DNA of 64,000 nt from Candidatus Omnitrophota bacterium. GTDB taxonomy: Bacteria; Omnitrophota; Gorgyraeia; Zapsychrales; JAHFFX01. A program made the translations under genes and the position numbers. A model generated the notes under the pieces. The model did no database searches, had not been told where the DNA came from, and saw only the letters and a list, made by a program, of their open reading frames with translations. The stretch covers positions 783 through 64,782 of the forward strand of contig JAHFFW010000014.1 in NCBI GenBank assembly GCA_023247725.1, written 5' to 3'. Position 1 is the first letter of the stretch. Each line of letters starts with the position of its first letter. Positions 9,559-48,471 of this stretch are shown here, piece after piece.

Positions 9559-9577
9559 TCGAAGGAAAACCCAATCG

Positions 9578-11410
9578 ATGGCTGTCGTCCTTCTCATTGA
9601 AGATGAACGCCTGCTCGAAGGCTTCTTGCGGAATTTTCCGTCGGACAAGACAACCAAAAAATTTTTGGCCCTGAGAGAATGCACAGCAAAAACCTTGGCC
9701 TTCCTGGCAGAACACGGATTTGCCCCGGTAGAAAAAAATCCTTATCCCACGGCTTATCGTGAACGGTTTTTGCGTGAATATGTGGACGTCGTGGGAGCAT
9801 TAAACTGTGAATTGGCCAGCCGGTATTGGTGGGCCACCGACATCTCCTCCAAGAATCGTTTTACCTCCAAACTCTCCTTTTCCTTGCAGCAATTCCTTTC
9901 GGCGATGGAAGTCGCTAAAAGCCACAAGCAAGGCAACCTTTTGATCATCAATGTCCCATGGAATTTATTGCCAAGCCTTAAAAGGGCCTTGGCTCAGGAA
10001 GGCATTGCGTTTGACGCTCTGGAAATTCGATGGAAAAAAAGCTTTGACCTGACAGCGGGTTGGCTGCGCCGGCTCGCGGCGACCCTTGCTGATTTTGGCC
10101 GGATGTTTCTTCGCTATCTTGCCGCTCGGGAACTGCGGACTCAACTTGAGAGGGAAGGGAAGTCCAAAACCTCGTACTATCTCATCAAAACTTTTGTTTA
10201 TAACCATTCTTTTTCCGTCGACGGGAAATATAGAGATATGTTCTTTGGCAGGCTTCCCGATTTTATCAAAGAGGAAAAAAAGAACGTCTTATTTCTTGCT
10301 TACGTAATCGGAGATTTCAAAAACGCCGTCCGCCGGATGAAGGCTTGTTCTTCGGATTTCATTATTCCGGTGGAAGCCCTCTGGTCTTTGCGTGATATCG
10401 TGAAGGGATGTGTGACGGCCCTTTTTTATCGCACGTCTTATGCGAAGGAGCACAATTTTTTTGGTTATGAAATCCGCGATCTTGTGAACGCTGAACTCCA
10501 GCGAACTTTTTGCCGGATTCAACCGTATCAATTGTTGCACTATGAAGCGGCTCGGCGTTTGCTAAAAAAAATTTCGGTCGAAACATTTCTATTTACATAT
10601 GAAAATAATCCCTGGGAAAAAATGTGCCTTTTGGCCTTTTGTCATGATTCTCCCCAAACCCGGACGATCGGTTATCAGCACACCATTGTGACTCAAGCCT
10701 CCGCCAATATGTTTGCCAGCCGGCGGGAAGCGGACGTTCTTCCCCGGCCGCAAACCATCTTGACCGTCGGAGAAATCCCTAAAGAAATCATTGCCCGCTA
10801 CAGTCCCGGCCGCCAGGCCATGATGGAGGCGGCCGGCGGCGTTCGTTTTGAATATTTATTCCCAATGACCACGGCCAAGCGGCGGCCGTTGCGTAATATC
10901 CTTATTATGCTCGAAGGTGTGAGTGAGGTATACAAAATGGTCAATTATGTTTTAGAGGGATTAAAGGATGATCGCAAATTTGAAGTCGTGATTCGCTTGC
11001 ATCCAGAACTTTCTCTGAAGAGGCTCAAGTCCAAATTAAAATATCCGGTCGAAACCTTGCCGAACCGGAGTTTTTCCAAGAATGTTTCGATTAAGGATGA
11101 CATTGAGTGGGCGGATGCGGTCATTTATTGGGGAAGCACCGGAGCCTTGGAAGCCCTGTGTGTTGGCAAACCCATCATCAACTTTGACGCTGGATCGGTT
11201 TTGAGCTATGATCCGCTTTTTGAATGTCAGCATTTGAAATGGAATGTGTCGTCGCAATCCTCGTTAAAGTTCGTCTTCGAGGAAATTCAAAACCTGTCCG
11301 ATGACCAATACCTCAGCCTGCAACGACAGGCGAAAGCGTATTTGAGCCGCTATTTCTTTCCCGTGACTCCGGACGCTTTAAAGAAATTTATCCCTAAAAA
11401 AGAATCTTAA
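9578..11410 (+). CDS. hypothetical protein (610 aa), C-terminal region resembles a GT-B/Rossmann-like transferase domain
   Basis: The segment WADAVIYWGSTGALEALCVGKPIINFD resembles the C-terminal nucleotide-sugar binding half of GT-B enzymes. Weak assignment. Confidence 0.45.
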   Translation: MAVVLLIEDERLLEGFLRNFPSDKTTKKFLALRECTAKTLAFLAEHGFAPVEKNPYPTAYRERFLREYVDVVGALNCELASRYWWATDISSKNRFTSKLSFSLQQFLSAMEVAKSHKQGNLLIINVPWNLLPSLKRALAQEGIAFDALEIRWKKSFDLTAGWLRRLAATLADFGRMFLRYLAARELRTQLEREGKSKTSYYLIKTFVYNHSFSVDGKYRDMFFGRLPDFIKEEKKNVLFLAYVIGDFKNAVRRMKACSSDFIIPVEALWSLRDIVKGCVTALFYRTSYAKEHNFFGYEIRDLVNAELQRTFCRIQPYQLLHYEAARRLLKKISVETFLFTYENNPWEKMCLLAFCHDSPQTRTIGYQHTIVTQASANMFASRREADVLPRPQTILTVGEIPKEIIARYSPGRQAMMEAAGGVRFEYLFPMTTAKRRPLRNILIMLEGVSEVYKMVNYVLEGLKDDRKFEVVIRLHPELSLKRLKSKLKYPVETLPNRSFSKNVSIKDDIEWADAVIYWGSTGALEALCVGKPIINFDAGSVLSYDPLFECQHLKWNVSSQSSLKFVFEEIQNLSDDQYLSLQRQAKAYLSRYFFPVTPDALKKFIPKKES

Positions 11411-11549
11411 AAAAGAAGCAAAGTCGAAGGGTTGACTTCCCTTCGCATAGGAATTAAAATACCGATCGCAAAACAAAATGGTTCCGCGAACCTGGATGCG
11501 AACCGGGGCTTGCTCGTGGGACTCCATTTTTTTTCAAAAGGAGGTTGCG

Positions 11550-11822
11550 ATGAACAGATCTTTCCTTTACGGTTTCTTGGTGGCCGCGCTTTTATCGATT
11601 TTTTGGGGACCTCTGTGGCTTAAGAATTCAGAAGCGCAAACCCAGGCCGCGTCCTACGAAGGGGTCATGCCATTCTGGACCTCGGGAGGCTGGCTGGGTT
11701 TATTTGATCAGAAAGCCGGCATCGTGTATTTATACGACGATAGTTTAGTCAATTGCAGGATGATTGCCCGGATCAATAAATTGGGCTTACCAATGGTGGT
11801 TACTGGGAGGGGCGCGAAATGA
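11550..11822 (+). CDS. small secreted/membrane-anchored hypothetical protein
   Basis: RBS aaaggagg lies 7 nt before the ATG at 11550. The N-terminus is hydrophobic (MNRSFLYGFLVAALLSIFWGPLWL). The stop overlaps the MoxR start. Confidence 0.4.
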   Translation: MNRSFLYGFLVAALLSIFWGPLWLKNSEAQTQAASYEGVMPFWTSGGWLGLFDQKAGIVYLYDDSLVNCRMIARINKLGLPMVVTGRGAK

Positions 11823-12814
11823 CCCAGGTGAGCATTGCGGCCATTAATGAAAGGGCTCAAAAGGAAAGCAGCTTTGTCGGCATTTTGACGCGGGAGATTG
11901 AAAAGGTCATTGTTGGTCAGCGTTATCTGATCGAGCGTCTGATGGTCGGCCTCTTGGCCAACGGGCATATCCTTCTCGAGGGAGTTCCTGGCCTTGCCAA
12001 AACGACCGCCGTCAAAACCTTATCCTCTGCCATTCAAACAAAATTCCAGCGCCTGCAATTTACGCCGGATATGCTTCCCGCGGATTTGACGGGAACGCTC
12101 ATTTACGATCAAAAAACCGGAGAATTCAAAATCAAAAAAGGCCCGGTCTTCGCCAATCTCATCCTCGCCGATGAAATCAACCGCGCCCCGGCCAAGGTCC
12201 AGAGCGCGCTCTTAGAGGCCATGCAGGAACGACAGGTCACGATCGGTGATCAGACGCTGCTCTTGGATGATCCTTTTCTGGTTTTGGCCACGCAAAATCC
12301 CATCGAGCAAGAAGGAACTTATCCCTTGCCCGAGGCGCAGGTGGACCGGTTTATGCTCAAGGTCAGATTGACCTATCCCAGCAAGGAAGAAGAATTGCAG
12401 ATCCTGCGCCGGATGTCCTTTACCGAGCAGCATTTTCAGGTTCAGAAAATCATTTCTCCAAAAGAAATCCTGGCCGCACGCAAGGTCGTGGATGAGATCT
12501 ATATGGATGAAAAAATCGAGCGTTATATTGTGGAGCTGATCGAAGCCACTCGGGACCCGGTGGCTTATCGATTGAATGATCTTAAAGGGCTCATTCAATA
12601 TGGTGCCTCGCCGCGGGCGACCATTTTTCTGGCGATTGCCTCCAAGGCGTTTGCCTTTTTGCAGGGCCGCGGATATGTGACCCCGCAGGATGTCAAATCG
12701 ATTGGGATGGATGTCCTGCGGCATCGGCTGATTATCAGTTATGAAGCAGAAGCCGAGGAGAAGACCTCCGAGGACCTGATTAAGAGAATCTTTGAGGAAA
12801 TCCAGGTTCCATGA
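11819..12814 (+). CDS. MoxR-family AAA+ ATPase
   Basis: Walker A GVPGLAKT and the MoxR signature LQFTPDMLPADLTG...ILADEINRAPAKVQSALLEAMQERQVT. Confidence 0.9.
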   Translation: MTQVSIAAINERAQKESSFVGILTREIEKVIVGQRYLIERLMVGLLANGHILLEGVPGLAKTTAVKTLSSAIQTKFQRLQFTPDMLPADLTGTLIYDQKTGEFKIKKGPVFANLILADEINRAPAKVQSALLEAMQERQVTIGDQTLLLDDPFLVLATQNPIEQEGTYPLPEAQVDRFMLKVRLTYPSKEEELQILRRMSFTEQHFQVQKIISPKEILAARKVVDEIYMDEKIERYIVELIEATRDPVAYRLNDLKGLIQYGASPRATIFLAIASKAFAFLQGRGYVTPQDVKSIGMDVLRHRLIISYEAEAEEKTSEDLIKRIFEEIQVP

Positions 12815-13016
12815 GCAGCGTAAGCGAATAGCGTTAGCGGATAGTGTTTTTGAATGGTGCGACAACTCTCTACCAAGAGTTAGAGGCTTATAAAAAGTCT
12901 TACAAACCGGTAAATGATGTGTATCAAGTGACGAATAAATTTCCTGAAGAGTCAAATATTGCTGATTCAGGCTGATGACTGATTATTAATATTCGCTATC
13001 CGCTATCCGCTGAAAA

Positions 13017-13934
13017 ATGATCCCCAAACATCTCTTCGAAATCATCCGTCGGATTGAGATCACCACCTCCCGGATGGTGACCGATGTTTTTGCCGGAGAA
13101 TATCACAGCGTTTTTAAAGGCCGCGGCATGGAATTTAACGAGGTCCGCGAATATTCTTTCGGAGACGATATTCGCACGATTGACTGGAATGTCACGGCCC
13201 GCACAGGCATCGCCCACGTCAAGAAATACGTCGAGGAAAGAGAATTGACCGTTATGATTCTGGTGGACTTGTCACGCAGCTGCCAGTTTGGTTCGGTGCG
13301 GGAACTCAAGGCTAAACTCGCGGCCGAGATTGCCGCGGTCCTCGCGTTTTGTGCCACCCGCAATAATGACAAGGTGGGATTGATTTTGTTTACCGACCGC
13401 ATTGAAAAATTCATTCCGCCGCGCAAAGGTTTGATCCACGTTCTTCGCCTGATCCGGGAAGCTCTGTATTTTGTGCCGAAGGGTTCTGCGACCGACTTGC
13501 CCGTGGCTTTGGATTATCTCAATCGCGTCACCGCCCGCAAGACCGTGAGTTTTATCGTGTCGGATTTTCTGGTGAATCCGGCAGCCGGGCAGACAAAACC
13601 CTCGACGATGGCAGAGACCTGGCAAAAGGCCCTGCGTCTTGCCAACAAACGCCATGATCTGGTGGCGGTGACACTCAATGACCCACGAGAAAAGGGTTTG
13701 CCTCCTTGCGGTTTGATTGAACTGCGGGACGCCGAGACCGAGCGGATGATCCTCGTTGACTCTTCGGATCCCGGGGTTCGCCGACGGTATGAAGAAGAAG
13801 CCAGACGGCGAATCGTGCAGCGGGAAACGCTTTTTGGAATCGTGGGCATGGATCATATCGATGTTTCGACCGATCTTTCCTATGCCAAAGAAATGGTCAA
13901 ATTTTTTACCCGACGCAAAAAAAGGTTTCGTTAG
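13017..13934 (+). CDS. DUF58 protein (VWA-like MoxR partner)
   Basis: The motif FGDDIRTIDWNVTARTGIAHVKKY is typical of DUF58, and the gene lies immediately downstream of MoxR. Confidence 0.8.
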   Translation: MIPKHLFEIIRRIEITTSRMVTDVFAGEYHSVFKGRGMEFNEVREYSFGDDIRTIDWNVTARTGIAHVKKYVEERELTVMILVDLSRSCQFGSVRELKAKLAAEIAAVLAFCATRNNDKVGLILFTDRIEKFIPPRKGLIHVLRLIREALYFVPKGSATDLPVALDYLNRVTARKTVSFIVSDFLVNPAAGQTKPSTMAETWQKALRLANKRHDLVAVTLNDPREKGLPPCGLIELRDAETERMILVDSSDPGVRRRYEEEARRRIVQRETLFGIVGMDHIDVSTDLSYAKEMVKFFTRRKKRFR

Positions 13935-14514
13935 GAAGAATCTTTTTTTTGTCCTGTTTTGTTTGGGAGCATGCGGCTATGGCCAGAGCGTCTGGAGCCA
14001 AGCGGATATTAAGGATGTTAAACCTCCGATTGTCTTAGAGGCGGATAGGCGGGTCCTCGCTCTTTTGGGGATCCTCCTTATGATCGTCGTTGGGCTGCTG
14101 GTACAGAAATGGATTCTATCCCTCTGGTTGCGCCCAACACAAGAAAAAGACAGCCGCCCGCCGTGGGACGTGGCGCTTTCCGGTTTGGATGCTTTACAAA
14201 GACAGGACCTTCTCACCCAAGGCCGCTATAAAGAATATTACAGCGTCCTTTCTGATATTATCCGTCGCTACATGGAAGAGCGTTTTCAAATCCGGGCGCC
14301 GGAGATGACAACCCCGGAATTCCTCGCTTCTTTGCAAAACACCCAAGGATTAACCGCGGCCCAAAAAGAGTCCTTGCGCGAATTTTTGGAATCTTGTGAT
14401 TTGGTGAAATTCGCCCGCTTCGGTCCCACCTCGTCGCAGGTTGAGGATATCTTTGCGGCGGCTCGCCGATTGATTGAAGAAACCCGTGTTGAATCGCAAT
14501 TGTCACGTCCATGA
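13882..14514 (+). CDS. DUF4381-like small membrane/lipoprotein of the Bat operon
   Basis: ATG at 13882 gives a signal peptide with lipobox-like LGAC, followed by a TM helix and a charged C-terminus. Its position between DUF58 and BatA matches aerotolerance operons. The start is uncertain: the ORF is open from 13756. Confidence 0.5.
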   Translation: MPKKWSNFLPDAKKGFVRKNLFFVLFCLGACGYGQSVWSQADIKDVKPPIVLEADRRVLALLGILLMIVVGLLVQKWILSLWLRPTQEKDSRPPWDVALSGLDALQRQDLLTQGRYKEYYSVLSDIIRRYMEERFQIRAPEMTTPEFLASLQNTQGLTAAQKESLREFLESCDLVKFARFGPTSSQVEDIFAAARRLIEETRVESQLSRP

Positions 14515-15506
14515 TCTTTAAAGATCCCTGGGTCTTTGTTCTTATTCCAGGAGTTTTTTTGTTGTTTTATTGGGCCAATGCCCATAAGCCAAGGCCGGCC
14601 TTCCGATTTCCGTCGGCAGAATTATTTCGAAATGTCCCGACCGGGTGGAAGGCGAAGTTGAGTCCCTACCTTTGGGTTTTGCGGTTCATGGTTTTATGGT
14701 TGATAGTGATCGCCCTGGCCGGACCGCGCCGGATCCTGGAAGAAGCCAAACACACCTCCGAGGGGATTGACATCGTGCTCGCGTTGGACGTCTCGGGGAG
14801 TATGGCCGCCGAGGATTTTGTGTTGGGTGGGCGCAGGATGAATCGGCTCGAGGTGGTTAAAAAAGTCGTTGGGGAATTTATGGAAGGACGCGAGAGCGAT
14901 CGCATCGGTTTGGTGGTCTTTGGGGCTCGCGCGTATACCGTCAGTCCTTTGACGACGGACTACCGTTGGTTGAAAGAGAATCTGGAACGGATTGAACTGG
15001 GAATGGTGGAAGATGGTACGGCGATTGGTTCGGGGATTGCCTCCGCTTTAGGAAGGCTCAAAGACAGTCAGGCAAAAAGCAAGGTCATTATTCTTCTGAC
15101 CGACGGTATGAACAATGCCGGTAAATTGGCTCCTCTGGCCGCTGCCAAGACCGCCGCGGCGATGGGGGTGAAGATTGATACCATTGGCGCCGGATCGTTG
15201 GGCGCCGTGCCATTTCCCGTTAAGGATCTTTTTGGACAGACGTTTTATCAGCGCGTGCGCTTGGACCTGGATGAAAAAACTCTTCAAGAAATTGCCTCAA
15301 CAACCGGTGGATTTTATTTTCGGGCGACCGATACGGAATCTTTACGACGCATTTATCACGACATTGATACAATGGAGAAAACAAAGGTGGAAGAAACAGG
15401 CTATAAAGAATACCAGGAATTGTTCCCGAATTTTTTAAGGGCGGCCCTGTTCATCCTGGCTTTTGAAATCATTTTGACAAATACGTTTTTTTTGCGGATA
15501 CCGTGA
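14511..15506 (+). CDS. BatA-like von Willebrand factor A domain membrane protein
   Basis: N-terminal TM helices, then a VWA domain with a MIDAS motif (DIVLALDVSGSM). Confidence 0.8.
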   Translation: MIFKDPWVFVLIPGVFLLFYWANAHKPRPAFRFPSAELFRNVPTGWKAKLSPYLWVLRFMVLWLIVIALAGPRRILEEAKHTSEGIDIVLALDVSGSMAAEDFVLGGRRMNRLEVVKKVVGEFMEGRESDRIGLVVFGARAYTVSPLTTDYRWLKENLERIELGMVEDGTAIGSGIASALGRLKDSQAKSKVIILLTDGMNNAGKLAPLAAAKTAAAMGVKIDTIGAGSLGAVPFPVKDLFGQTFYQRVRLDLDEKTLQEIASTTGGFYFRATDTESLRRIYHDIDTMEKTKVEETGYKEYQELFPNFLRAALFILAFEIILTNTFFLRIP

Positions 15507-16510
15507 TGCATTTCGCCGAACCTCAACAACTGAATTGGATTTGGGCTATTGTGTTTCTGGGATTCCTTTTTGCCGCGGCCTTTTCTTGGCGCAAAAAACA
15601 GATGGAAAAATTTGTCGCGGCCCCGATTCTGCCCCAGGTTATCCCCGAGGTCAGTTTTCGACGATATGTCCTAAAAAGTATTTTGATTCTTCTGGTTTTT
15701 TTCTTAAGCATCCTGGCCTTGGCTCGGCCGCAGTGGGGTTTCCAATGGCAAACGATCAAACGCCAGGGGATTGATATCCTGATTGCGATTGATACCTCCA
15801 AAAGCATGTTGACCGCGGATGTAAAACCGAACCGCCTTGGGCGAAGCAAATTGGCCGTTAAAGATTTGATTAAGGATCTCAAAGGCGATCGCGCCGGACT
15901 CGTGGCTTTTGCCGGTGAGGCCTTTTTGGTCTGTCCTCTGACCGTTGACTATCATGGTTTTTTGTTGGCCCTGAATGATTTGAACGTGGGAACAATTCCC
16001 AGAGGAGGAACGGCCATTGCCAGGGCTATCCATACGGCCATTTCTCAATACCCAGAGGAGCCCGGGAAATATAAGGTGCTTGTCATTCTCACCGACGGAG
16101 AGAATCAAGAAGGTGATCCTGTGGCGATGGCAGAGAAGGCCAAAGAAAAGGGAATCCGCATTTATTGCATTGGCATAGGGACGAAGGAAGGGGAGCTCAT
16201 CCAGATTCCGGCCGCCTCCGGAGAAGGTTATGAATTTCTCAAGGACCGGGAGGGGCAATTTGTTAAGTCGAGGCTCAATGAAGGTCTTCTGGCTCAAATC
16301 GCTAAAGTGACCGGCGGTGCCTACGTGCGGGCGAGCGGCGCGCAATTCGGCCTTGACCAATTGTACAGGGATGAATTATCCAAATTGGAAGAGCGGGAAA
16401 TCGAAAGCAAAATGGGAAAAAAATATTTCGAGCGATTCCAATTTCCTTTAGGGATGGCCCTGGTTTTATTGGTAACGGAAATCCTCACGAGCGAAAGGAA
16501 GAGGGCCTGA
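15503..16510 (+). CDS. BatB-like VWA domain membrane protein
   Basis: VWA MIDAS motif DILIAIDTSKSM and TDGENQEGD. It is a paralog of the preceding gene. Confidence 0.8.
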   Translation: MMHFAEPQQLNWIWAIVFLGFLFAAAFSWRKKQMEKFVAAPILPQVIPEVSFRRYVLKSILILLVFFLSILALARPQWGFQWQTIKRQGIDILIAIDTSKSMLTADVKPNRLGRSKLAVKDLIKDLKGDRAGLVAFAGEAFLVCPLTVDYHGFLLALNDLNVGTIPRGGTAIARAIHTAISQYPEEPGKYKVLVILTDGENQEGDPVAMAEKAKEKGIRIYCIGIGTKEGELIQIPAASGEGYEFLKDREGQFVKSRLNEGLLAQIAKVTGGAYVRASGAQFGLDQLYRDELSKLEEREIESKMGKKYFERFQFPLGMALVLLVTEILTSERKRA

Positions 16511-17460
16511 TGCGGGGCATGTTCACGCTTTTGGTTTTTCTTGGTTGGCTGGCAGGGCCGGCCAGTGCGCCGACCGAGGCCAAGATTTTCTCCACTTTTG
16601 TTCGGGATGCGAAAAGAGGGAACACTTTGTACCAAAAGGGGCAATTTGCCGACGCTGCCAAAGAATTCACTGCCGCCTTGAGCCATTCTCCGCAGAGTGA
16701 TCAACTGCATTTTAATCTCGGAACAGCTTTATACAAAAGCGGCGATTATGCAGGAGCCATTGAACATCTGCGTCAGGCGCTTTTGGGCGAACATGGCGAT
16801 CTTGCGGAAAGCATTCACTACAATCTCGGCAATGCCTTATATAAAAAAGGAAAGGCCAGTGAGTCAAAGGATCAAAAGAAAGTCGCGCAAGACTGGCAGG
16901 AAGCCCTGGACCAGTACGCGCAATCCTTAAGGCTCAACCCCGATGACCCCGATGCGTCCTTCAATTATGATTTCGTCAAAAAGGAATTGGAGCGTCTAAA
17001 AAAAGAAGAGCAACAACAAAAATCCCAGAGTCAACCACAGCCATCGCCCTCATCCTCTTCCTCGGAACGGCAAAAGCCCCAGGATTCTTCCGGAACTTCC
17101 GGAGGGCCGCAGTCGCCGCAAAAATCTTTCGGTCAGGTCTCGGCGTCGGAGAAACCGCCAGAACATCCCTCCGCGCCCGCCGAAGAAAAAAAGGATCGGG
17201 GAGAACAGAAAGGAGAGCAAAAAAATTCCGCAGAGGAAACCGCAAAAGAGAAATCGCCCCAGCCGACGACCGTAGAAAAAGAAAAACCGACGGCAGGAAC
17301 CGAAACGACGGGCGAGGCTTCCCCTGTCGAAGGTGGCGAAATGAGTCCGAAGGAAGCGCAAATGCGGTTGGATGAGTATTTGCAGAATGAGGAACCCAAA
17401 GGACTGCTTTTTCTCAATTCTGTGCCTGGCCAAGAAAGTACGGTTTTGAAGGACTGGTGA
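16510..17460 (+). CDS. BatC-like TPR protein with low-complexity S/P/E/K-rich tail
   Basis: Signal peptide, TPR-like repeats (YNLGNALYKKGK) and a long acidic/basic low-complexity C-terminus. Confidence 0.6.
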   Translation: MRGMFTLLVFLGWLAGPASAPTEAKIFSTFVRDAKRGNTLYQKGQFADAAKEFTAALSHSPQSDQLHFNLGTALYKSGDYAGAIEHLRQALLGEHGDLAESIHYNLGNALYKKGKASESKDQKKVAQDWQEALDQYAQSLRLNPDDPDASFNYDFVKKELERLKKEEQQQKSQSQPQPSPSSSSSERQKPQDSSGTSGGPQSPQKSFGQVSASEKPPEHPSAPAEEKKDRGEQKGEQKNSAEETAKEKSPQPTTVEKEKPTAGTETTGEASPVEGGEMSPKEAQMRLDEYLQNEEPKGLLFLNSVPGQESTVLKDW

Positions 17461-19292
17461 GCACCATGCGATCAAGATTTTTTCAGTGTATTTTAACGGC
17501 GAGTTTAGCGACAGGTTTTTTGCTTGTGCCAGCACTTCGAGGCGAGGATCTGAGTTTTGAGGCGGCGGTTAATGCCAACAAAGTGAATTTGGGAAATGCC
17601 CTGCAGCTGATTCTCACCTTGCATGGCGGAGAATTGAAAGATCCCGTGCCGCTGCCGGAGATGGAGGGTTTTCAGACGAGGTATTTAGGACCTTCCACCA
17701 AAATTTCTGTGGTCAATGGCCAGGTCTCGTCGCAGTATTCGCATATGTATTTGCTTTATCCGACGAAGACCGGCGTCTTTACGATTCCTTCCCTGCGTGT
17801 GACCGTCAATGGTCAAGCGCTTGCCACACAGCCGATCCAGATCGAGGTCGTTGATTCGGCGGTCACCGCCGGAGGCACGAATGCCGCTGGTGATTCCTCG
17901 GCCGGCTCCGTGGAAGACAAGATTTTTATGACCCTTACCATACCGAAGGACAAGGTTTATCTCAATGAAAAAGTTCCCGTGACGATCAAATTGTTCATCA
18001 ACCAATTGTTGGTTCAGGATGTTCATTATCCGGAATTTACGCATGAAGGTTTTCTCGCGGATGAATTCTTTGATCATGAACAATACCAGCAGGTCGTAGG
18101 CGGCATTCCCTATCAGGTTGTCGAATTTAAAACCACCGTGTATCCGACGAGGACCGGGGAATTGAAACTGGGTCCGGCGAAGATCGAGGCCAATGTTTTA
18201 TTTGCAGTGGCGCCTCCTTCGGGCCAAAACCGTTTCGACCAATTTTTTGGCGATGATCTGTTTGGGGATTTTTTCAATTCCTACGACAAACATCCCTACA
18301 CGTTCTCTTCGCAGGAGCAAGCCCTCACGGTTTTGCTGTGGCCGAAGGAAAACCAGCCCGCCGATTTTGTCGGAGCCGTCGGGCAATTCAATTTTGCCGC
18401 CACCGTCAGTCCCGTACAGCTCACCCTCGGTGATCCCCTGACGGTGCGGATGCAGGTGTCCGGCGACGGTAATCTTAAAAATTTGCCAATGCCTGATCTT
18501 AAAGGATGGAATCAATTCAAGGTTTATGAACCGCAGTTCAAGGAAGAGCCGGGCAAAAAAACTTTGGAGCAGGTTGTCATCCCTCAGTCGGAAACCATCA
18601 CCGAGGTGCCAGCCATTCATCTGAGTTATTTCGATCCCCAGACCGAGACCTACCAAACGATCACTCAAGCACCTTTTCCGATTAAAATCACCAAATCGAA
18701 GGCGAGCGAAGATTTCAAGATTGTCGACTTCACCGGCGAAGGCGCCTCGGCAAGGTCCCGGCCGGAATCCATCGGTCAAGACATTGTCTTCATTAAAGAA
18801 AAACCCGGTCCGTGGAAAAAAGTGGGAATGGATTTTTATCAAACACCTTTATTTGCCGGAATCTGTGCGTTGGTTTTGCTTTGGTGGGGAGGGATGGTCG
18901 GATTATTTCTGTGGAACCGGCAGCTCAAGTCGAATGAGGCTCTGGCCCGTCGGCTGCAGGCCCCGAAAAAAGCGCGAAAGGGTTTGGAGTTGGCCCGCCA
19001 GCAGATGGTAAAGGGAGAGGCGAAAGAATTTTATGACACGGTTTTTCGAACCCTGCAGGAATATCTGGGCGACAAATTTCATTGGCCGGCCGCCAGCATC
19101 ACGAGTTCCGGAGCCGAGGAGCTTTTGCGCAGCCGCAATATCAACCACGACATTTTAAACCGGGTCAAGGCAATCTTTGCCCATTGTGATACTGTTCGTT
19201 ACGCTGGCGTCGATCTTTCTGGAGAAAGCCTGCAGGACTCTTACCAAAGGCTGGCAGAAGCGATCGATCTGTTGGAAAGGCAGAAACGATGA
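17457..19292 (+). CDS. BatD-like oxygen-tolerance protein
   Basis: Signal peptide, a large beta-rich extracytoplasmic region and one C-terminal TM helix. Sits in the canonical position after BatC. Assigned by context and architecture. Confidence 0.6.
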   Translation: MSTMRSRFFQCILTASLATGFLLVPALRGEDLSFEAAVNANKVNLGNALQLILTLHGGELKDPVPLPEMEGFQTRYLGPSTKISVVNGQVSSQYSHMYLLYPTKTGVFTIPSLRVTVNGQALATQPIQIEVVDSAVTAGGTNAAGDSSAGSVEDKIFMTLTIPKDKVYLNEKVPVTIKLFINQLLVQDVHYPEFTHEGFLADEFFDHEQYQQVVGGIPYQVVEFKTTVYPTRTGELKLGPAKIEANVLFAVAPPSGQNRFDQFFGDDLFGDFFNSYDKHPYTFSSQEQALTVLLWPKENQPADFVGAVGQFNFAATVSPVQLTLGDPLTVRMQVSGDGNLKNLPMPDLKGWNQFKVYEPQFKEEPGKKTLEQVVIPQSETITEVPAIHLSYFDPQTETYQTITQAPFPIKITKSKASEDFKIVDFTGEGASARSRPESIGQDIVFIKEKPGPWKKVGMDFYQTPLFAGICALVLLWWGGMVGLFLWNRQLKSNEALARRLQAPKKARKGLELARQQMVKGEAKEFYDTVFRTLQEYLGDKFHWPAASITSSGAEELLRSRNINHDILNRVKAIFAHCDTVRYAGVDLSGESLQDSYQRLAEAIDLLERQKR

Positions 19293-20044
19293 GAACGATG
19301 TTATGGAGAAGCTTTCTGGGGATGAGCGTCGTAATCTTTTTGAACCTCGGCGTCAGCGCCGCGCCGGACGAGATGTCCTTGTTCTTTAAGGCGAATGAGG
19401 CTTATCGCCAAGGAGATTATGCAAAGGCCGCCAGAATTTATGAAAGGATTCTGCAGTCGGGAAAGACGAGTGGAAATTTGTATTATAACTTGGGCAACGG
19501 TTATTTCAAATCCGGCCGGCTCGGGTCGGCCGTCCTCAGTTACGAGCGTGCTCGACGACTCATGGCGCGCGACGCGGATTTAATTGCTAATGAACAATTT
19601 GCGCGTTCTCAGGTTGAAGCCAGTCCGGAACCCAAGGCTTCGTTCTTTAAGATGCGGTTTTTCGATTACTGCGCTTATTTGACAACGGATGAATGGACCA
19701 TCTTTGTTTTCGTTTTGGGTCTGGCGACGGTTATTGCGCATCTTTTATCCTTACAGCAGAATTGGTCGGTGCGCCAGAGCCGGTTCTGGGCGGGCCTCTT
19801 TTTCTTGATCTGGATCAGTCATGCTGGAATTTTGGTGTTCAAGGTCAACCAACAAAAGGATCAGGCCATCATCCTGCAAAAAACCGATGCGTTTTTTGAA
19901 CCGCGGATCAAGGCCACGATTCATTTTTCTTTGTCCGAAGGCACGAAGGTCAAATCCTTAAAAGTCGAACCCCCCTGGGTCAAGATTGAACGATCCGACG
20001 GCAAGATGGGCTGGGTGCAGGCTGACACACTGGAAAAGATTTGA
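19289..20044 (+). CDS. BatE-like TPR + SH3b domain protein
   Basis: TPR motif (YYNLGNGYFKSGRLGSA), a TM segment and a C-terminal SH3b-like segment (GWVQADTLE). Confidence 0.6.
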   Translation: MRTMLWRSFLGMSVVIFLNLGVSAAPDEMSLFFKANEAYRQGDYAKAARIYERILQSGKTSGNLYYNLGNGYFKSGRLGSAVLSYERARRLMARDADLIANEQFARSQVEASPEPKASFFKMRFFDYCAYLTTDEWTIFVFVLGLATVIAHLLSLQQNWSVRQSRFWAGLFFLIWISHAGILVFKVNQQKDQAIILQKTDAFFEPRIKATIHFSLSEGTKVKSLKVEPPWVKIERSDGKMGWVQADTLEKI

Positions 20045-23375: not shown

Positions 23376-23577
23376 AAAATAGATAACGTGCCAGTATCCA
23401 TCAATGGTGTTGTGTATTTCCAAGTGGTCGATGCTCAAACAGCCGTCATTAAAATCCAGAATTATTTATACGGAAGTCAGTAAAATATTGGAAGTGGATG
23501 TTGCTGAAAATAGGATTAATCTAAAGCAAGAACAACAAAGACTGTCCAGCTAGCTCTAAGCATGTATAATACCAAAT

Positions 23578-24369
23578 ATGACAAAAGAACCTGTTTCAGT
23601 TGACTTTTCAAACACCCATAATTTTTCGTCTCTTGCTAATGCTCCCATCGTCGAGTCTGTTATTGACATCCGCATCGCTTCCGACATCAAATGGGACGGG
23701 ACTGCTTTAAAGCAGGATTTACAGAACCGGCTTAAAGATTATCCCAAAATTGAGGAATTGAGAGAATTCCGATATCACATCTCCCCCATGCCCAACCCTG
23801 ATCAGGAAGCTAAACCCAAGACCGAGGACATGGGATGCGTAGGTCTAAAGTTGCACTCCATGAATCACCTTCACATTGTTCAATTCAATCAAGGCGCATT
23901 TGTTTTCAGTCGTTTAAAACCCTATGAGGACTGGAGTCAATTTACCGGCGAGGGATTGCGTTTGTGGAAAATATATCGAGAGATCTTTCGGCCGGTTGCG
24001 GTCCAGCGGCTTGGCGTGCGGTTTATCAATAGGATCCCGCTTCAGGCTGATTATGCCGGTCTCGAAGATTATTATAATAATCCCCCTAAAGAGCTTGCTG
24101 GATTAAATTGGCCGCAGGCAGGTTTTCTGACACATGATTTATTTCAAGTCCCAGGCACGGATTATGCGGTCAATATCATCAAGACCCGGGTGCCTCCCAA
24201 TGCCGCGGATAATGAACAAGGAGTGGTCTTGGATATCGATGTGTATTTTCAAACCCCATTTAATTATACCGACGAGGAATTGAATGCGCATTTGACCAAA
24301 ATGCGCTGGATCAAGAACAAGGTCTTTTTTAGTTGTCTAACCCCTGAATTAATTGCGAGATTAAGATAA
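23578..24369 (+). CDS. hypothetical protein (263 aa), first gene of AT-rich cassette
   Basis: Clean ORF in a lower-GC island. I recognise no motif. It dimly resembles a conserved hypothetical family, which I cannot verify. Confidence 0.5.
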   Translation: MTKEPVSVDFSNTHNFSSLANAPIVESVIDIRIASDIKWDGTALKQDLQNRLKDYPKIEELREFRYHISPMPNPDQEAKPKTEDMGCVGLKLHSMNHLHIVQFNQGAFVFSRLKPYEDWSQFTGEGLRLWKIYREIFRPVAVQRLGVRFINRIPLQADYAGLEDYYNNPPKELAGLNWPQAGFLTHDLFQVPGTDYAVNIIKTRVPPNAADNEQGVVLDIDVYFQTPFNYTDEELNAHLTKMRWIKNKVFFSCLTPELIARLR

Positions 24370-24845
24370 TGCCGCCATTGCTATTGCCTATGTCATTATC
24401 AGGAGCTACCAGCCCAGTTGCTGCTTACGTGGAAGAAATCCAAAAAGACAGCCGGCAACAGCTGGAAAATTCTGAGATATTTGGGATGAGAGGCGTTTTG
24501 GAACAACTGGACGCGGTTTATGAAGATTGTGTCTTGCCTGGCTGGGATGGAAATGGGGCTAAGGCGATTTCTCATGATGTTTTACGTAATGCCCGATTTT
24601 TTCTTGAATCACTGCCGTTTGGCATGGAATTGCCTCAAATCGGCGCAGAGCCGGACGGTGCTATTACTTTTGAGTGGTATCGCTCTCCCAAGAGGACATT
24701 GTCTGTGAGCATCAATCCTGATGGTTATGTGTATTATGCCTCTTTAATAGGCGCCAGCCGCCGGCATGGCGTTGATCCGGTTCAAGGAGGCATTTCCAAA
24801 GATTTGATCGCGGTTATTCATCAAGTGTTGGGAATAAGGATATAA
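24369..24845 (+). CDS. hypothetical protein (158 aa)
   Basis: Its start overlaps the upstream stop (TAATG). No recognizable motif. Confidence 0.45.
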   Translation: MPPLLLPMSLSGATSPVAAYVEEIQKDSRQQLENSEIFGMRGVLEQLDAVYEDCVLPGWDGNGAKAISHDVLRNARFFLESLPFGMELPQIGAEPDGAITFEWYRSPKRTLSVSINPDGYVYYASLIGASRRHGVDPVQGGISKDLIAVIHQVLGIRI

Positions 24846-24848
24846 AGA

Positions 24849-25244
24849 ATGCCGAGCGCTGTCTTAGTTAGTGAATGGTTGGCGCGGTTTATTTTGTTTG
24901 GCCGTTGGGTCCGTGCCGACGGCACCGTCAGACAAGATGCATTTATTCCGGATGAGCGATTAGAATTGTCTGTTACCCGTTGTTCCGGTGTTTTAGATAC
25001 CGAAATTTGGAACATTGGAGAAGGCGTTGCCCGGGAAAGCGGCCGTAATCTTCATGGAAGGGCTGACGTTGGGGTTGCGGTGGTGAAATCGAACAATCTT
25101 GATGTGAGGACAACTCCACAAGAAGGGAATCCCTATCACGCTGATGTGGTCAATTGGCCGGCACGTAAGGATGAGCAAAAAATGGCGGCCATGGCCCTAG
25201 CAGCGGCGGCCCAGTTTCGTCCTCCCCGCGTAAATTCCCTATAA
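24849..25244 (+). CDS. hypothetical protein (131 aa)
   Basis: Starts 4 nt after the previous stop, i.e. operonic. No recognizable motif. Confidence 0.4.
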   Translation: MPSAVLVSEWLARFILFGRWVRADGTVRQDAFIPDERLELSVTRCSGVLDTEIWNIGEGVARESGRNLHGRADVGVAVVKSNNLDVRTTPQEGNPYHADVVNWPARKDEQKMAAMALAAAAQFRPPRVNSL

Positions 25245-25379
25245 AAATGTCATCTCCCTTTGCCTAAAACAGCAAAACCGCCGGCAAAGTGAAAGTTCTT
25301 TCACTGAAGCAATTGGAACTATAAAATTTGCCGGCTTTCCCGACGTTATCTCGGATATTAAGAAAAAAATTTAAGACAC

Positions 25380-27389
25380 TTGCACAAAGGGATCATTCTC
25401 TTAACCTTGGCCGTTTTGGGTAGCGTGGTTTTTAGTAATACCCTTCATCACCGATTTATCATTGACGATGCCTATCTTTTATTTCATGAGCCCGCGCTTG
25501 CATCGACGAAATTCGCCTTCTATCAGCTGATTCCCCAATACAAATCAGTTTTCGCTATGGACGACCAGGAGCCGGAGGTTTTTTATCGTCCGGGCGCAAA
25601 GTTGTTTCCCATGTTTTGTCACCAATTGTTTGACGAACATCCCGCACCGTATCATATCCTGAATATTTTGCTTTGGGTCACCGCCGCGTGGCTCGTGTAT
25701 CTTTGGGTCCGATTACTTTTTCCTGAAAGGGTGGCGGGCGTCGCGAGCCTGCTCTTGTTGATCCATCCGATCAACGGGATCGTGGTGAATTACAAATCCG
25801 CCGCCGTGTATTCGCTGGTTTTGATTTTTCTCAATGGCTCGATCCTGACTTATCTGCGCTGGCAAAAGGAAAGCCGCGGGAAGATATTTTGGCTGGCCGC
25901 GAGTCTGTTGTTATTTGCCATCGCCCCATTTTTCCATGAAATGGCCCTGTCCTTGCCGCTTTTTCTTTTTCTCATCGAGCGGGTTCGTCAATCCTCTCCG
26001 ATTCTGACCTCTTTGGGGAATCTGCGTTATCACGGTTTTTTATTTCTCCTCTTTTTGATTTTGCATCCCACGATGGGACACCTCTATTCGGCATTTGCTT
26101 CCGGAATAAGTCCTGGATCTGGTTTGATTTCTCTTTTTGCTCAAGGGCCGGCGATTCTTTGGTATCTAAAGAAGTTGGTAATACCGACGGGAATTGTCTT
26201 TCTCTGGAGCCTGCCGGTTCATCTGGCTTCGGCCGCCTGGGCGTGGGTGGCATTCGGACTTTTATGGTTGAGTTGGGTTGTGGCCTCGCGCTCTCGCGGG
26301 TGGGGAAGGGAATTGAATTTTTCCATTCTGTGGCTGCTGGTCGGTTTTTTGCCGACGTTCATCGCCAAGGGTTTGCATGACCCTAAGCGTATGGTTTTCG
26401 AACCTCACTGGATGATGGTCTCTTCCATTGGATTTTTCTTATTCATTGCGTTACTGTTGGAACGTTTATGGCAGAGAAATTTGCAGAGGGCGGCTTTTTC
26501 CATCACGATCGTTCTCATGGCGGCCTGGGGTTGGGAATCTTTTGAGATGAACAAGCTCTGGTCGAGCCAAACGGTTTATTGCCAATACTGGCTCAACCAG
26601 ACTCCGGATAATCCTTCCCTATATATGTTGCTCGCCAGCGGATATCAAGGGGAAAAAGAGTATGAAAAAGCAAGGATGTATTATCGAAAGTGTTTGAAGC
26701 TGGGGGTAGAACCAGCCAAGGCATATGACGATCTGGGGATCATGGCCTTGGATGAAAGAAAATATAAGGAAGCGGAGGATTATTTTCAATTGGCGTTGGC
26801 AGTGAATCCGAAACAGTCGATATTCTGGAACAATTTAGGGTCGGTGTATTTGGAGACAAGGCGTTTTGAGGAAGCGAAGACGGCCTTTGAGCGGGCGATT
26901 GAGTTAAATCCCTTGTATTATCTTCCCCGGGCGAATCTGGGGCAGGTGTATCATCAGGAAGGAAAACTCCCAGAAGCTTTAACTTTTTATGACGAGTATC
27001 TGGAGATCACTCCTCGAGATCAGCATATTGTGTTGTTGGCGATGACGGCGGCATTGAAATTGCAGGAGGCGACCCAAGTCAAGAAGCTGGTCCTTCACGC
27101 CAGACGCTGGGTGGATGATCCCGATGGACTGGCGCAGCTGGGGAGTGTGTTGGCTTCGCACGCAGACCCTCCGGATGCCTTTGCTCTTTACGAGAAGGCC
27201 TTAAAGCTTAACCCTAAATTTATTCCGGCCTATGTGGAAATGGGAAAGCTGCTGGCGAATAACGGCGATCTGGATGGGGCCTTGCGGGTCTGGCGTGTGG
27301 CGGAGCGCAATGCGGTCAATAACGAAGAATTGGTTCATCTGATTCAGCAAGCGACCCAATTAAGAGAAGAGTTCCATGCGAATCCCTAA
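25380..27389 (+). CDS. polytopic membrane protein with C-terminal TPR repeats (PMT_2/ArnT-like N-domain?)
   Basis: About 11 TM helices followed by TPR repeats. Putative TTG start. Paralog of the next gene. Confidence 0.6.
   Translation: MHKGIILLTLAVLGSVVFSNTLHHRFIIDDAYLLFHEPALASTKFAFYQLIPQYKSVFAMDDQEPEVFYRPGAKLFPMFCHQLFDEHPAPYHILNILLWVTAAWLVYLWVRLLFPERVAGVASLLLLIHPINGIVVNYKSAAVYSLVLIFLNGSILTYLRWQKESRGKIFWLAASLLLFAIAPFFHEMALSLPLFLFLIERVRQSSPILTSLGNLRYHGFLFLLFLILHPTMGHLYSAFASGISPGSGLISLFAQGPAILWYLKKLVIPTGIVFLWSLPVHLASAAWAWVAFGLLWLSWVVASRSRGWGRELNFSILWLLVGFLPTFIAKGLHDPKRMVFEPHWMMVSSIGFFLFIALLLERLWQRNLQRAAFSITIVLMAAWGWESFEMNKLWSSQTVYCQYWLNQTPDNPSLYMLLASGYQGEKEYEKARMYYRKCLKLGVEPAKAYDDLGIMALDERKYKEAEDYFQLALAVNPKQSIFWNNLGSVYLETRRFEEAKTAFERAIELNPLYYLPRANLGQVYHQEGKLPEALTFYDEYLEITPRDQHIVLLAMTAALKLQEATQVKKLVLHARRWVDDPDGLAQLGSVLASHADPPDAFALYEKALKLNPKFIPAYVEMGKLLANNGDLDGALRVWRVAERNAVNNEELVHLIQQATQLREEFHANP
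26731..27052 (+). repeat. 322-bp block 100% identical to 28751-29072 (intra-paralog gene conversion/duplication)
   Basis: Direct nucleotide comparison of the two TPR regions. Divergence resumes on both sides of the block. Confidence 0.85.
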
Positions 27390-29400
27390 AGAAGAAAATT
27401 TCCGCACATGGAAGGTGCTTTTGATCCTGGGGCTTTTTGGAGTATGTGTTTTTGCCAATACCCTCAATCACCGGTTTAATATCGACGAGTATAATTTTTT
27501 TTTCCAGGATTCGTCATTTCAATCCCCCAAATTTTCTCTTTATCAATGGATCCCCAATTTCCGACAAGTCTACAGACTGGATGAACAAAGACCAGAACTG
27601 TATTATCGTCCGCTCAACCACACCTTGATGATGGCGAGCAAATGGATATTCCAAGACAATACTCGCTTGTATCAGGTATCGAGTATCTTTTTTTGGGTGG
27701 CCGCGGCCGGGATGGTTTATTCTTTATTGAGCGGATGGACTAAAAAAAGGGTGGCTTTTGGGGCGAGCCTTTTTTTTCTGGTTCATCCGATGAATGGTCT
27801 GATGTTGAACAATAAGACCTGCTTTGTTTACTCGGTCATGCTGATCTTTATGTGTGCATCGGCGATCCTGCAAAGGCGCTGGCAAGAGCAAAAAAACATG
27901 GGCTGGCTCGCTGCCAGTCTATTTCTTTATCTTTTGGCCAGCCTGATCCATGAGATGGGACTTTTACTGCCGATCTATCTTATCTTTGTTGAACGCTACG
28001 TCCGCGACTCTTCCTGGCGAAAGTCTTTTTGGGAGATCCGTTATCACGGATTGATCTTCTTCGTGTTTTTCTTATGGCATTTGAGTTTCACCCAGATGAA
28101 AACCGTGGTCTTTGCCAACTGGGGTGGGCCGGGGCTGGCGATCGCCAATGGGATTTTTGCGAGCGCACAAGCCGTGGCCTTGTATGTGGAAAAATTGCTC
28201 GTTCCCATCGGTATTGTGATCAACTGGACCAGAGACGTCACGATGGGGGCTGCCCTTTTGGCCTGGTTGATCGTCGCCGCGGGAGTCGGGGCTTTGATTA
28301 TTCTTCGACGCAAAATTCGTTGGGAAAGAGAAATCCGCCTGTCCTTGGCCTGGCTCGTGACTGGATTCTTCGTCATCATGGTCACGAGCGTCCTTTCCGG
28401 TCACGGACGGATTGTGGTCGAGCCGCACTGGATGCTTTTTCCCTCCCTTGGTTTTTTTCTGCTCGTGGCGCTCGTGATCGACCGAGGGTGGCAGAGCCAC
28501 TTTAAGAAGGCGGTCGTTTTGATTTGTACTGGCTTGTTGCTTTTTTGGAGCGGATTGTCCTTTGTCGCTAATTCCTTCTGGGCTAATCAAAGGATCTTTG
28601 CCGCGTATTGGCTGACCTATTCTCCCCATAATTCTTATTTGTATTTTTTGTTAGCCAGCGGCTATCAGGAAGAGGGGGATTACGCTCGAGCCGAAATTTT
28701 TTATAAGAAGTGTTTAGCGTTGGGGGTCGTTCCGGCGAAGGCGTACGACAATCTGGGGATCATGGCCTTGGATGAAAGAAAATATAAGGAAGCGGAGGAT
28801 TATTTTCAATTGGCGTTGGCAGTGAATCCGAAACAGTCGATATTCTGGAACAATTTAGGGTCGGTGTATTTGGAGACAAGGCGTTTTGAGGAAGCGAAGA
28901 CGGCCTTTGAGCGGGCGATTGAGTTAAATCCCTTGTATTATCTTCCCCGGGCGAATCTGGGGCAGGTGTATCATCAGGAAGGAAAACTCCCAGAAGCTTT
29001 AACTTTTTATGACGAGTATCTGGAGATCACTCCTCGAGATCAGCATATTGTGTTGTTGGCGATGACGGCGGCGTTAGAGAGCAAGGATGGCCAACAAGTC
29101 GAAAAATTTTTTAATCAAGCGAGACAATGGATTGATGATCCGGCGGCATTAACCCAGATAGGGAGTTTATTAGCATCAAAAGGGGATTTTCCCCAGGCCT
29201 TCGCCTTGTATGAGAAAGCCTTACGGCGTAATCCACAGTTTATTCCGGCCTATGTGGAGATGGGCAAGCTCTTGGCTAACCAGGGAGATCTCGACGGGGC
29301 AAGGAGAGTTTGGAGCGCGGCACTTCCCTATAGCAACGACCAAGGGGAATTACTGGATTTGCTGAGAAGGTCTGAGAGAGACAACTATCCTGCTTCGTAA
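27376..29400 (+). CDS. polytopic membrane protein with C-terminal TPR repeats (tandem paralog)
   Basis: Same architecture as the previous gene. Shares 107 identical residues and 322 identical nt with it. Confidence 0.6.
   Translation: MRIPKEENFRTWKVLLILGLFGVCVFANTLNHRFNIDEYNFFFQDSSFQSPKFSLYQWIPNFRQVYRLDEQRPELYYRPLNHTLMMASKWIFQDNTRLYQVSSIFFWVAAAGMVYSLLSGWTKKRVAFGASLFFLVHPMNGLMLNNKTCFVYSVMLIFMCASAILQRRWQEQKNMGWLAASLFLYLLASLIHEMGLLLPIYLIFVERYVRDSSWRKSFWEIRYHGLIFFVFFLWHLSFTQMKTVVFANWGGPGLAIANGIFASAQAVALYVEKLLVPIGIVINWTRDVTMGAALLAWLIVAAGVGALIILRRKIRWEREIRLSLAWLVTGFFVIMVTSVLSGHGRIVVEPHWMLFPSLGFFLLVALVIDRGWQSHFKKAVVLICTGLLLFWSGLSFVANSFWANQRIFAAYWLTYSPHNSYLYFLLASGYQEEGDYARAEIFYKKCLALGVVPAKAYDNLGIMALDERKYKEAEDYFQLALAVNPKQSIFWNNLGSVYLETRRFEEAKTAFERAIELNPLYYLPRANLGQVYHQEGKLPEALTFYDEYLEITPRDQHIVLLAMTAALESKDGQQVEKFFNQARQWIDDPAALTQIGSLLASKGDFPQAFALYEKALRRNPQFIPAYVEMGKLLANQGDLDGARRVWSAALPYSNDQGELLDLLRRSERDNYPAS
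28751..29072 (+). repeat. 322-bp block identical to 26731-27052
   Basis: See the partner copy. Confidence 0.85.
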
Positions 29401-48162: not shown

Positions 48163-48471
48163 ATGAAAAAAATCACATCAAAAATATCAGTTAATTTGCC
48201 AGTCCAATTTATAAAAGAAGGCAATACTTTTGTTGCTTCCTGCCCCGCTCTTGATATTTCAACTCAAGGCGAGACGTTTGAGGAAGCGCAAAAAATGTTT
48301 AGCGAATTGGTTGGTGTCTTTATCCATGAACTAATTGAAATGGGAACGGTAGAGGAAGTTTTATTGTCTCTGGGGTGGCAGAAAGCCCCAGATAAGAAAA
48401 CATGGAAACCACCCGTAATTGATTTTATCAAAGAAAGTCAGCAAGCAGTTGACATTCCATGCCCCGCCTAA
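48163..48471 (+). CDS. hicB: HicB-like antitoxin (type II TA)
   Basis: FVASCPALDISTQGETFEEAQKMFSELV matches the HicB_lk_antitox fold signature. Overlaps the downstream hicA. Confidence 0.7.
   Translation: MKKITSKISVNLPVQFIKEGNTFVASCPALDISTQGETFEEAQKMFSELVGVFIHELIEMGTVEEVLLSLGWQKAPDKKTWKPPVIDFIKESQQAVDIPCPA

Follow-up and report, generated by a model that had tools for sequence, protein, structure and literature searches.

Organization of the cassette

The locus described here lies in a 64,000-nucleotide (nt) stretch of contig JAHFFW010000014.1 (positions 783 to 64,782, forward strand) of the Candidatus Omnitrophota assembly GCA_023247725.1, which we refer to as the window, and consists of a compact cassette of three co-directional open reading frames (ORFs) on the plus strand. 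ORF1 (p1, 23578-24369) codes for a protein of 263 amino acids (aa) belonging to the TIGR04255 family, ORF2 (p2, 24369-24845) for a protein of 158 aa with a variable N terminus and a conserved core, and ORF3 (p3, 24849-25244) for a protein of 131 aa that is predicted to be a minimal ADP-ribosyltransferase (ART)-fold protein. The cassette was picked out in an earlier, sequence-only reading of the window, and our analysis confirmed the coordinates of the three ORFs. The start/stop overlap reported there is a 1-nt overlap between the ORF1 stop and the ORF2 start, within TAATG, while the gap between ORF2 and ORF3 measures 3 nt (TAA-AGA-ATG, 24843-24851) instead of 4, both genes being in the same frame. 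An AAGGA is located 9 to 10 nt 5' of the ORF3 ATG.

The drop in GC content that had drawn attention to the interval is real and smaller than first estimated. The interval has 45.4% GC versus 49.65% for the whole window, which corresponds to the 2nd percentile of equal-sized sliding windows (mean 49.6, standard deviation 2.1). The flanks, which had been put at 52 to 55%, are closer to 49 to 50% (50.3% in the CheR kinase upstream and 48.9% and 47.8% in the TPR genes downstream), leaving a contrast of about 4 to 5 points. The two spacers (35.6% and 38.5% GC) account for much of the dip, as the ORFs alone have 46.9%. Third-position GC is 43 to 47% in the cassette versus 57 to 59% in the neighboring genes, i.e., 10 to 15 points lower.

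Conservation of the three genes as a unit

A metagenome scan seeded with the ORF1 alignment retrieved 80 loci with 40 to 69% identity, 66 of them informative (at least 900 nt of downstream sequence) and 14 ending too early. All 66 informative loci have the order ORF1-ORF2-ORF3, with stops and starts that overlap or abut. The same three sizes and overlapping stops and starts were found in 7 of 7 gene-called contigs reached via ORF1 homologs, and blastp confirmed the homology for the two of these contigs that were checked directly. A one-genome-per-species scan with the ORF3 alignment gave 17 loci, in which ORF2 lies directly 5' of ORF3 wherever sequence is available; ORF1 is directly 5' of ORF2 in nine species and is absent from six two-gene ORF2-ORF3 loci, mostly from Planctomycetota. 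In no informative locus are ORF2 and ORF3 separated by another gene; they overlap or lie 3 to 4 nt apart, and the pair has the generic layout of a type II toxin-antitoxin (TA) system, that is, small, adjacent, co-directional, coupled, and co-occurring genes.

Pairwise identities of the three proteins among 34 complete triads and the window copy are correlated (r = 0.80 to 0.87) and have similar means, which indicates that the genes travel and diverge together. Judged from gene order and sequence divergence, the three genes are passed on and exchanged together, as a single unit. The expectation of the sequence-only reading that they would recur elsewhere as an operonic cassette was borne out in all three sets of loci, the nine genome loci with the complete triad coming from several phyla.

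A more distant arrangement was seen in a viral or prophage contig of IMG/VR (L029, 5071-8751), where a TIGR04255 gene with 26% identity is flanked on one side by a Dam-like DNA methylase (DPPY motif) and on the other by an SRAP/YedK-like gene, both recognized by eye. It is followed by ORFs of 215 and 152 aa that show a weak in-register match to the ORF2 and ORF3 motifs, including R, S, and H (hhalign E values of 0.55 and 0.019, respectively). For a three-gene architecture across the whole TIGR04255 family, these alignments are suggestive only. Extra small ORFs accompany the cassette in two places, one of 140 aa after ORF3 in an Omnitrophota metagenome-assembled genome (MAG; L001, 6451-6873) and one of 107 aa before ORF1 (L025, 7599-7922). 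Neither has a Pfam match, and each may be either a fourth component that is optional or a spurious call.

Distribution and mobility

The cassette has a sporadic distribution over at least seven bacterial phyla, with carriers among the Omnitrophota, Gamma- and Betaproteobacteria, Nitrospiraceae, Acidobacteriota, many Planctomycetota, and the genus Geoalkalibacter. Many of the loci come from uncultured lineages (Omnitrophota, Planctomycetota, and Nitrospiraceae) whose defense repertoires are poorly known. Geoalkalibacter halelectricus is a carrier with a complete NCBI genome record (CP092109) and offers a defined source sequence. The closest cassette, from an Omnitrophota MAG, shares 68, 88, and 81% amino acid identity with ORF1, ORF2, and ORF3, respectively, and is found in a different context, adjoining a phage-type integrase and an IS66 transposase and 5' of unrelated genes. 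Nucleotide homology to the closest cassettes (ca. 77%) is limited to 23632-25226, which is coding sequence. A search for flanking direct or inverted repeats and att-like sites found only short repeats at chance level.

Among 2.9 million viral contigs we detected no relatives of ORF2 or ORF3 and only two distant relatives of ORF1, and a tblastn search with ORF2 and ORF3 as queries found nothing in 72,556 plasmids. From these sequence comparisons, we conclude that the cassette is horizontally mobile and that it is not phage-borne. Among 48 nonredundant triads from the metagenome loci (L030 to L109), contigs end less than 1 kb 3' of ORF3 in 26 and less than 1 kb 5' of ORF1 in 13 (Wilcoxon P = 0.03), which hints that the region just downstream of the cassette is strain variable or repeated.

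Association with restriction-modification genes

For the survey of genomic context, loci were grouped at 90% identity and retained if they had 3 kb of flank or more, which left 54; neighboring genes were simple longest-ORF calls, and the three nearest on each side were scanned against Pfam. A co-directional hsdM, hsdS, or hsdR gene of a type I restriction-modification (R-M) system was found in the flank of 24 of the 54 nonredundant loci (44%). In 11 of these, the cassette is flanked by hsd genes on either side, most often in the order hsdM-hsdS-[cassette]-hsdR, and where the genes abut, the gaps between cassette and hsd genes are of about 10 to 130 nt. The top families were N6_Mtase (13), Methylase_S (12), ResIII (7), and HsdM_N (6) among the 117 upstream proteins and ResIII (8), SWI2_SNF2 (7), HSDR_N (4), and YgjP-like (4) among the 123 downstream ones. 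Further neighbors include Schlafen/AlbA_2, a PLD-helicase with an Eco57I-type methylase, serine recombinases, PDDEXK_1, DUF4365, and a DUF3987 primase. Genes of type I R-M systems account for something like 0.1% of all genes, so an adjacency of 44% represents a large enrichment, the share being a general figure and not a formal background.

In the other loci, as in the window, the cassette is inserted on its own amid housekeeping genes, one instance being an insertion between thiS and leuS. The cassette therefore lands either alone between housekeeping genes or inside type I R-M operons. The suggestion of a defense-type system, made from the window alone, finds a basis in the islands of other genomes, with 44% of loci in or beside type I R-M operons, and does not extend to the surroundings of the window copy, which is outside any defense island. 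With its recurrent hsdS-[cassette]-hsdR position, the cassette makes it possible to test for a second-line system that is coupled to R-M.

The three proteins

(i) ORF1. ORF1 matches NCBIfam TIGR04255 with 129 bits (cutoff, 30; E value, 2.5e-37) over model positions 2 to 251 of 252, and on the basis of this match it is a full-length member of a named but uncharacterized family. The absence of any recognizable domain, as reported in the sequence-only reading, consequently applies to ORF2 and ORF3, which have no Pfam match, and not to ORF1. Source databases name the ORF1 homologs "TIGR04255 family protein," and the family is not mentioned in the searchable literature. The predicted model (pLDDT of 91.4 from a 67-sequence alignment) is built on a large antiparallel sheet of ten strands, behind which lie long helices. 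Seven polar residues are invariant (E26, R112, R144, R148, D219, D221, and K246). According to strand periodicity from the sequence and the DSSP assignment, E26, R144, R148, D219, and D221 gather on one face of the sheet, the non-hydrophobic one; R112 is found where a strand ends, and K246 belongs to a helix. This pattern, read from sequence and DSSP, would be typical of phosphate- or metal-binding active sites. We propose that ORF1 could be a sensor or a nucleotide/phosphate-binding enzyme, which is a guess, as the closest solved folds are weak and heterogeneous matches.

ORF1 is the most diverged component with respect to the closest cassettes. Faster evolution of ORF1, as would be expected for a sensor in an arms race, was considered and rejected, its overall rates being like those of ORF2 and ORF3.

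(ii) ORF2. The first 45 or so residues of this protein are variable and precede a conserved core of roughly 110 aa with the motifs WDGxGA, AEPDG, EW, LSVSI, and YAAL; in some representatives, the 45 N-terminal residues are swapped for longer, unrelated extensions. The family is large, as a full hidden Markov model (HMM) scan with the ORF2 profile found 5831 representatives (clustered at 50% identity) at an E value of ≤1e-3 among 1.84 billion; a word-indexed search recovered only 30 to 34 clusters for ORF3 and ORF2. The ORF2 of the window matches PDC-M32A, a PADLOC model, at about positions 246 to 337 of 375 (E value, 7e-4), and 24 of 27 family members match the C-terminal third of that model, with a best E value of 1.8e-6. 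After this family-wide scan, the link is solid, and the profile comparison identifies the ORF2 core as a homolog of this C-terminal part of PDC-M32A. ORF2 always stands immediately 5' of ORF3 and is proposed to act as the cognate partner or neutralizer of ORF3, a putative antitoxin-like adaptor.

One protein (P0268, 238 aa, probably cut at the contig end) carries ORF2-like and ORF3-like parts in a single polypeptide, which could be a natural fusion, a read-through product, or an artifact of gene calling or assembly.

(iii) ORF3. The best predicted model of ORF3 has a pLDDT of 83.7 (21-sequence alignment). In an alignment of 31 sequences, nine residues are invariant (E9, R13, F32, P34, S41, R44, L68, H97, and A98). 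We examined the protein for the ART triad, [H/R]-[Y/S]-[E/Q/D] on strands 1, 2, and 5. R13 follows strand 1, strand 2 includes S41 (in LSVTR), and strand 5 carries H97 (in NxHA) but no conserved acidic residue. The three lie on or beside the predicted strands where the ART triad is located, as placed by DSSP strands and not by residue-level superposition, and the canonical Glu is missing. A Foldseek search of the model against the full PDB returned nothing at an E value of <1, and neither ORF3 nor its family matched the ART Pfam profiles (RES, DarT, and Tpt1). For these two reasons, a minimal ART fold is probable for ORF3 and not secure. On the strength of the predicted fold, we infer that ORF3 could be an NAD+-using effector or toxin.

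The similarity of ORF3 to PDC-M32B is marginal, with residues 20 to 124 of the window protein aligned to model positions 15 to 116 of 123 at an E value of 0.012, which is also the best value found; only 1 of 21 family members matches, and 3 of 31 diverse members do so at an E value of ≤1. Several homologs of ORF3 are disrupted, by an in-frame stop in L018 (2067-2441), by a frameshift in L021 (756-1096), and by an N-terminal truncation that removes E9 and R13 in L030 and L031 (L031, 3968-4297). ORF1 is intact in L030/L031, and the ORF2 homolog still stands beside the damaged ORF3 in all of them. These lesions may represent the inactivation of a costly gene.

Comparison with known systems

No Pfam match was found for the three proteins of the window or, at an E value of ≤1, for the ORF2 and ORF3 families, and neither the single sequences nor the family profiles have a sequence relative in the PDB. 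NCBIfam, scanned with the window proteins, gave nothing beyond TIGR04255, and PADLOC (2023 version of the models), scanned with proteins and family profiles, gave nothing beyond the PDC-M32 matches. The ORF2 and ORF3 homologs of Geoalkalibacter are annotated as "hypothetical protein" in both RefSeq and UniProt. The searchable literature, including that on ART defense systems and on genes embedded in R-M operons, does not describe the triad, and PDC-M32 appears in it merely as a PADLOC match in Sinorhizobium prophages. The triad is hence undescribed in PADLOC 2023, Pfam, NCBIfam, the PDB, and the searchable literature.

PDC-M32 is a PADLOC candidate, predicted and not validated, composed of two genes, A (ca. 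375 aa) and B (ca. 123 aa). It resembles the cassette in that the ORF2 core is similar to the C-terminal third of PDC-M32A and ORF3 is weakly similar to PDC-M32B over nearly its full length, in the same A-then-B order. The differences are that ORF2 lacks the N-terminal part of about 245 aa of PDC-M32A and that the cassette has an additional, strictly linked TIGR04255 gene. ORF2 falls short of the full length (ca. 375 aa) that defines PDC-M32A, and PADLOC would not call the locus PDC-M32. PDC-M32A might have been a fusion of ORF1-like and ORF2-like parts, an idea that we rejected at the sensitivity of our searches, as no ORF1 homolog matches PDC-M32A. On sequence similarity, the triad would be at most a distant relative of PDC-M32, via the ORF2 core.

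With respect to the RES-Xre systems (ParST, MbcTA, NatRT, and VPA0770/0769), the cassette differs in having neither a RES Pfam match nor an Xre/DUF2384-type antitoxin, in the conserved residues of ORF3 (R-S-H versus R-E-S), and in its third gene. It also differs from DarTG, since there is no DarT (DUF4433) match and no macrodomain antitoxin, and gene order and sizes are not the same. The Tpt1/KptA proteins are two-lobed and have about 180 aa, whereas ORF3 is a single domain about 50 residues shorter, with no profile match and a sequence identity of 6 to 11%. As the defining sequence features of these systems were searched for and are absent, the triad is not a RES-Xre, DarTG, Tpt1, or validated PADLOC system.

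The position inside R-M operons has a parallel in the anticodon nuclease PrrC, whose gene lies between hsdS and hsdR in the EcoprrI type I R-M operon. In both cases, an extra conflict gene or cassette is co-directional between hsdS and hsdR, a likeness that suggests a back-up guarding R-M. PrrC itself is an unrelated protein (ABC-ATPase/nuclease), and the cassette, unlike prrC, is often found away from R-M genes, as it is in the window. The nearest functional analogy appears to be CmdTAC, which is outlined in the report on that system as an ART toxin, an antitoxin, and a chaperone that senses the phage capsid, so that a third protein controls an ART TA pair (PMC11618068). By analogy, the triad would work most like the ART-toxin TA and defense systems, with a third component as in CmdTAC.

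Proposed function and alternative explanations

We consider the cassette a good candidate for an undescribed anti-phage or TA-like system. The explanation that we prefer, to which we give roughly even chances, is that it is a copy of a widespread, horizontally mobile three-gene module working as a TA- or abortive-infection-like defense system. A function in defense or as a toxin is suggested by genomic association and by the predicted fold. ORF3 would be the effector, either modifying a nucleic acid or a protein with the help of NAD+ or consuming NAD+, and its activity would stop the growth of the infected cell. ORF2, translationally coupled to ORF3, would bind it through the conserved C-terminal core and keep it inactive. 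ORF1, with its invariant Arg/Asp/Glu cluster on an open, enzyme-like sheet face, would be the upstream sensor or regulator that couples an infection signal to the release or activation of ORF3; the signal might be the loss of function of a neighboring R-M system or a nucleotide-type ligand. As the ORF2-ORF3 pair also occurs without ORF1, the pair seems to be the autonomous core, and ORF1 may be an add-on that became fixed in a large clade.

The hsdS-[cassette]-hsdR position is also the prrC position, which suggests by analogy a back-up role firing when restriction is disabled. In a stronger version of the same idea, the triad would be a widespread NAD+-dependent immune system guarding type I R-M, in which ORF1 monitors the R-M complex, or a nucleotide signal made when phage anti-restriction proteins disable it, and then frees ORF3 from ORF2 and aborts the infection, as a PrrC-like back-up assembled from three families of undescribed function. 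We regard this extended scenario as unlikely in its full form.

Several observations weigh against a defense module built around an ART effector. The window copy is solitary, among signaling and housekeeping genes and outside any defense island; the window has no hsd gene at all, and no recognizable defense gene is close to the cassette here or in roughly half of the loci. None of the PADLOC 2023 models of validated systems matches the three proteins. Regarding ORF3, the alignment is shallow, and the five AlphaFold2 (AF2) models range in pLDDT from 84 down to 43; the canonical catalytic Glu is absent, with a His in that strand and a variable D99, and the ART Pfam profiles are, as stated above, without a match. 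The solved folds nearest to ORF1 are weak and mixed, and the ORF3 lesions, which could speak for a costly gene, could possibly be assembly errors.

A pure addiction (TA) module, which would stabilize itself and the host island or R-M operon by post-segregational killing and have no role in phage defense, is a doubtful but serious contender. The ORF2-ORF3 layout resembles that of a type II TA pair, with small, coupled genes and the putative toxin in second place, mobile-element genes (integrase, IS66, and serine recombinases) adjoin the cassette, the adjacent R-M systems are themselves addictive, and the cassette is also found as solitary insertions. Simple addiction would nevertheless have no need of a strictly conserved third gene of 250 to 265 aa, and insertion between hsdS and hsdR is the position of prrC, an abortive-infection gene. 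Many TA systems do both jobs, so this reading overlaps with the preferred defense module. It is decidedly unlikely that the cassette is a type I R-M accessory that ADP-ribosylates DNA or the R-M enzyme and extends specificity or controls restriction alleviation without killing. In at least 11 loci it is co-directional inside hsd operons with very short spacers, and the distant triad of the viral contig lies directly 3' of a Dam-like methylase, but more than half of the loci, including the window, have no R-M genes within 8 kb, which means that the cassette must work without R-M, and other, unrelated systems also adjoin it.

The chances are slimmer still for an operon of RNA repair or RNA-end modification, in which ORF3 would be a truncated Tpt1/KptA-like 2'-phosphotransferase acting with an ATP-using ORF1 (guanidino-kinase-like sheet) on damaged RNA. 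Both sets of fold matches are weak, ORF3 does not match the Tpt1 Pfam family and, with 131 aa, is too small to contain the RNA-binding N-terminal lobe of Tpt1, and the sporadic distribution and the embedding in R-M operons suit a conflict system better. We find it hardly credible that the three genes form an ordinary lineage-specific housekeeping or regulatory operon tied to the CheR kinase or the TPR genes, with a low GC content by chance. They do have the same orientation as both neighbors, the modest GC dip stems in part from the spacers, and the local neighborhood is one of signaling and housekeeping genes. The context survey contradicts this, as the same cassette is found in unrelated contexts in many phyla and, among the contexts examined, never with these CheR or TPR neighbors, and its third-position GC is 10 to 15 points under that of the adjacent genes. 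Ordinary metabolic domains, which the sequence-only reading had named as an outcome that would speak against a new system, were not found; what emerged was TIGR04255, the relation to PDC-M32A, and the predicted ART-like fold.

If the preferred defense module is correct, it would provide a function for TIGR04255 and for two families that have neither a Pfam domain nor a functional name in the sources checked, and would add a further ART-based immune or toxin module to DarTG, RES-Xre, and CmdTAC.

Spacers and neighboring genes in the window

The AT-rich spacer upstream of ORF1 (23376-23577, plus strand, 35.6% GC) is probably the promoter region of the cassette. It contains a perfect TATAAT at 23565-23570, the last base of which is 7 nt before the ORF1 ATG, and no Shine-Dalgarno sequence is visible between the two, so the transcript could be leaderless. 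A consensus promoter scan called nothing in 23376-23577, where there is no good -35 element. The ENA annotation places a 49-aa ORF at 23404-23553, inside this spacer.

The AT-rich downstream spacer contains a stable plus-strand stem-loop, GCCGGCAAA ... UUUGCCGGC, at 25280-25335. RNA folding of 25240-25380 gives -31 kcal/mol (z = -3.1 versus shuffled sequences), and an inverted repeat coincides with the fold. The hairpin is followed by a short U run only, and a plus-strand terminator scan made no call there; it may mark the 3' end of the transcript or a regulatory hairpin.

The neighborhood had been described as accessory-looking, which the gene content does not bear out. Within about 10 kb of the cassette we found a Bat/VWA operon, a CheR-PAS histidine kinase, TPR/PMT_2-like membrane proteins, a hybrid kinase, and response regulators, that is, signaling and housekeeping genes. 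The Bat-type operon (BatA/VWA, VWA, TPR, BatD, and TPR) is complete and lies 5' of the CheR kinase, at 8000-20044 of the window, according to precomputed Pfam hits for the identical ENA contig. The TPR/PMT_2-like membrane genes downstream (25380-29400) are tandem paralogs whose C-terminal parts have about 82% nucleotide identity over 697 nt (26586-27280 versus 28606-29300), with an identical block of about 110 aa.

TA modules had also been placed nearby. One such pair was recognized by eye at 48163-48692, where overlapping ORFs of 102 and 77 aa resemble a HicB-type antitoxin followed by a HicA-type toxin ("MPRLTPIHYGKFAKFLEYIGCQFVRQRGSHMIYRR"). It is about 23 kb from the cassette, in a low-GC stretch of its own (44.8% for 48 to 50 kb).

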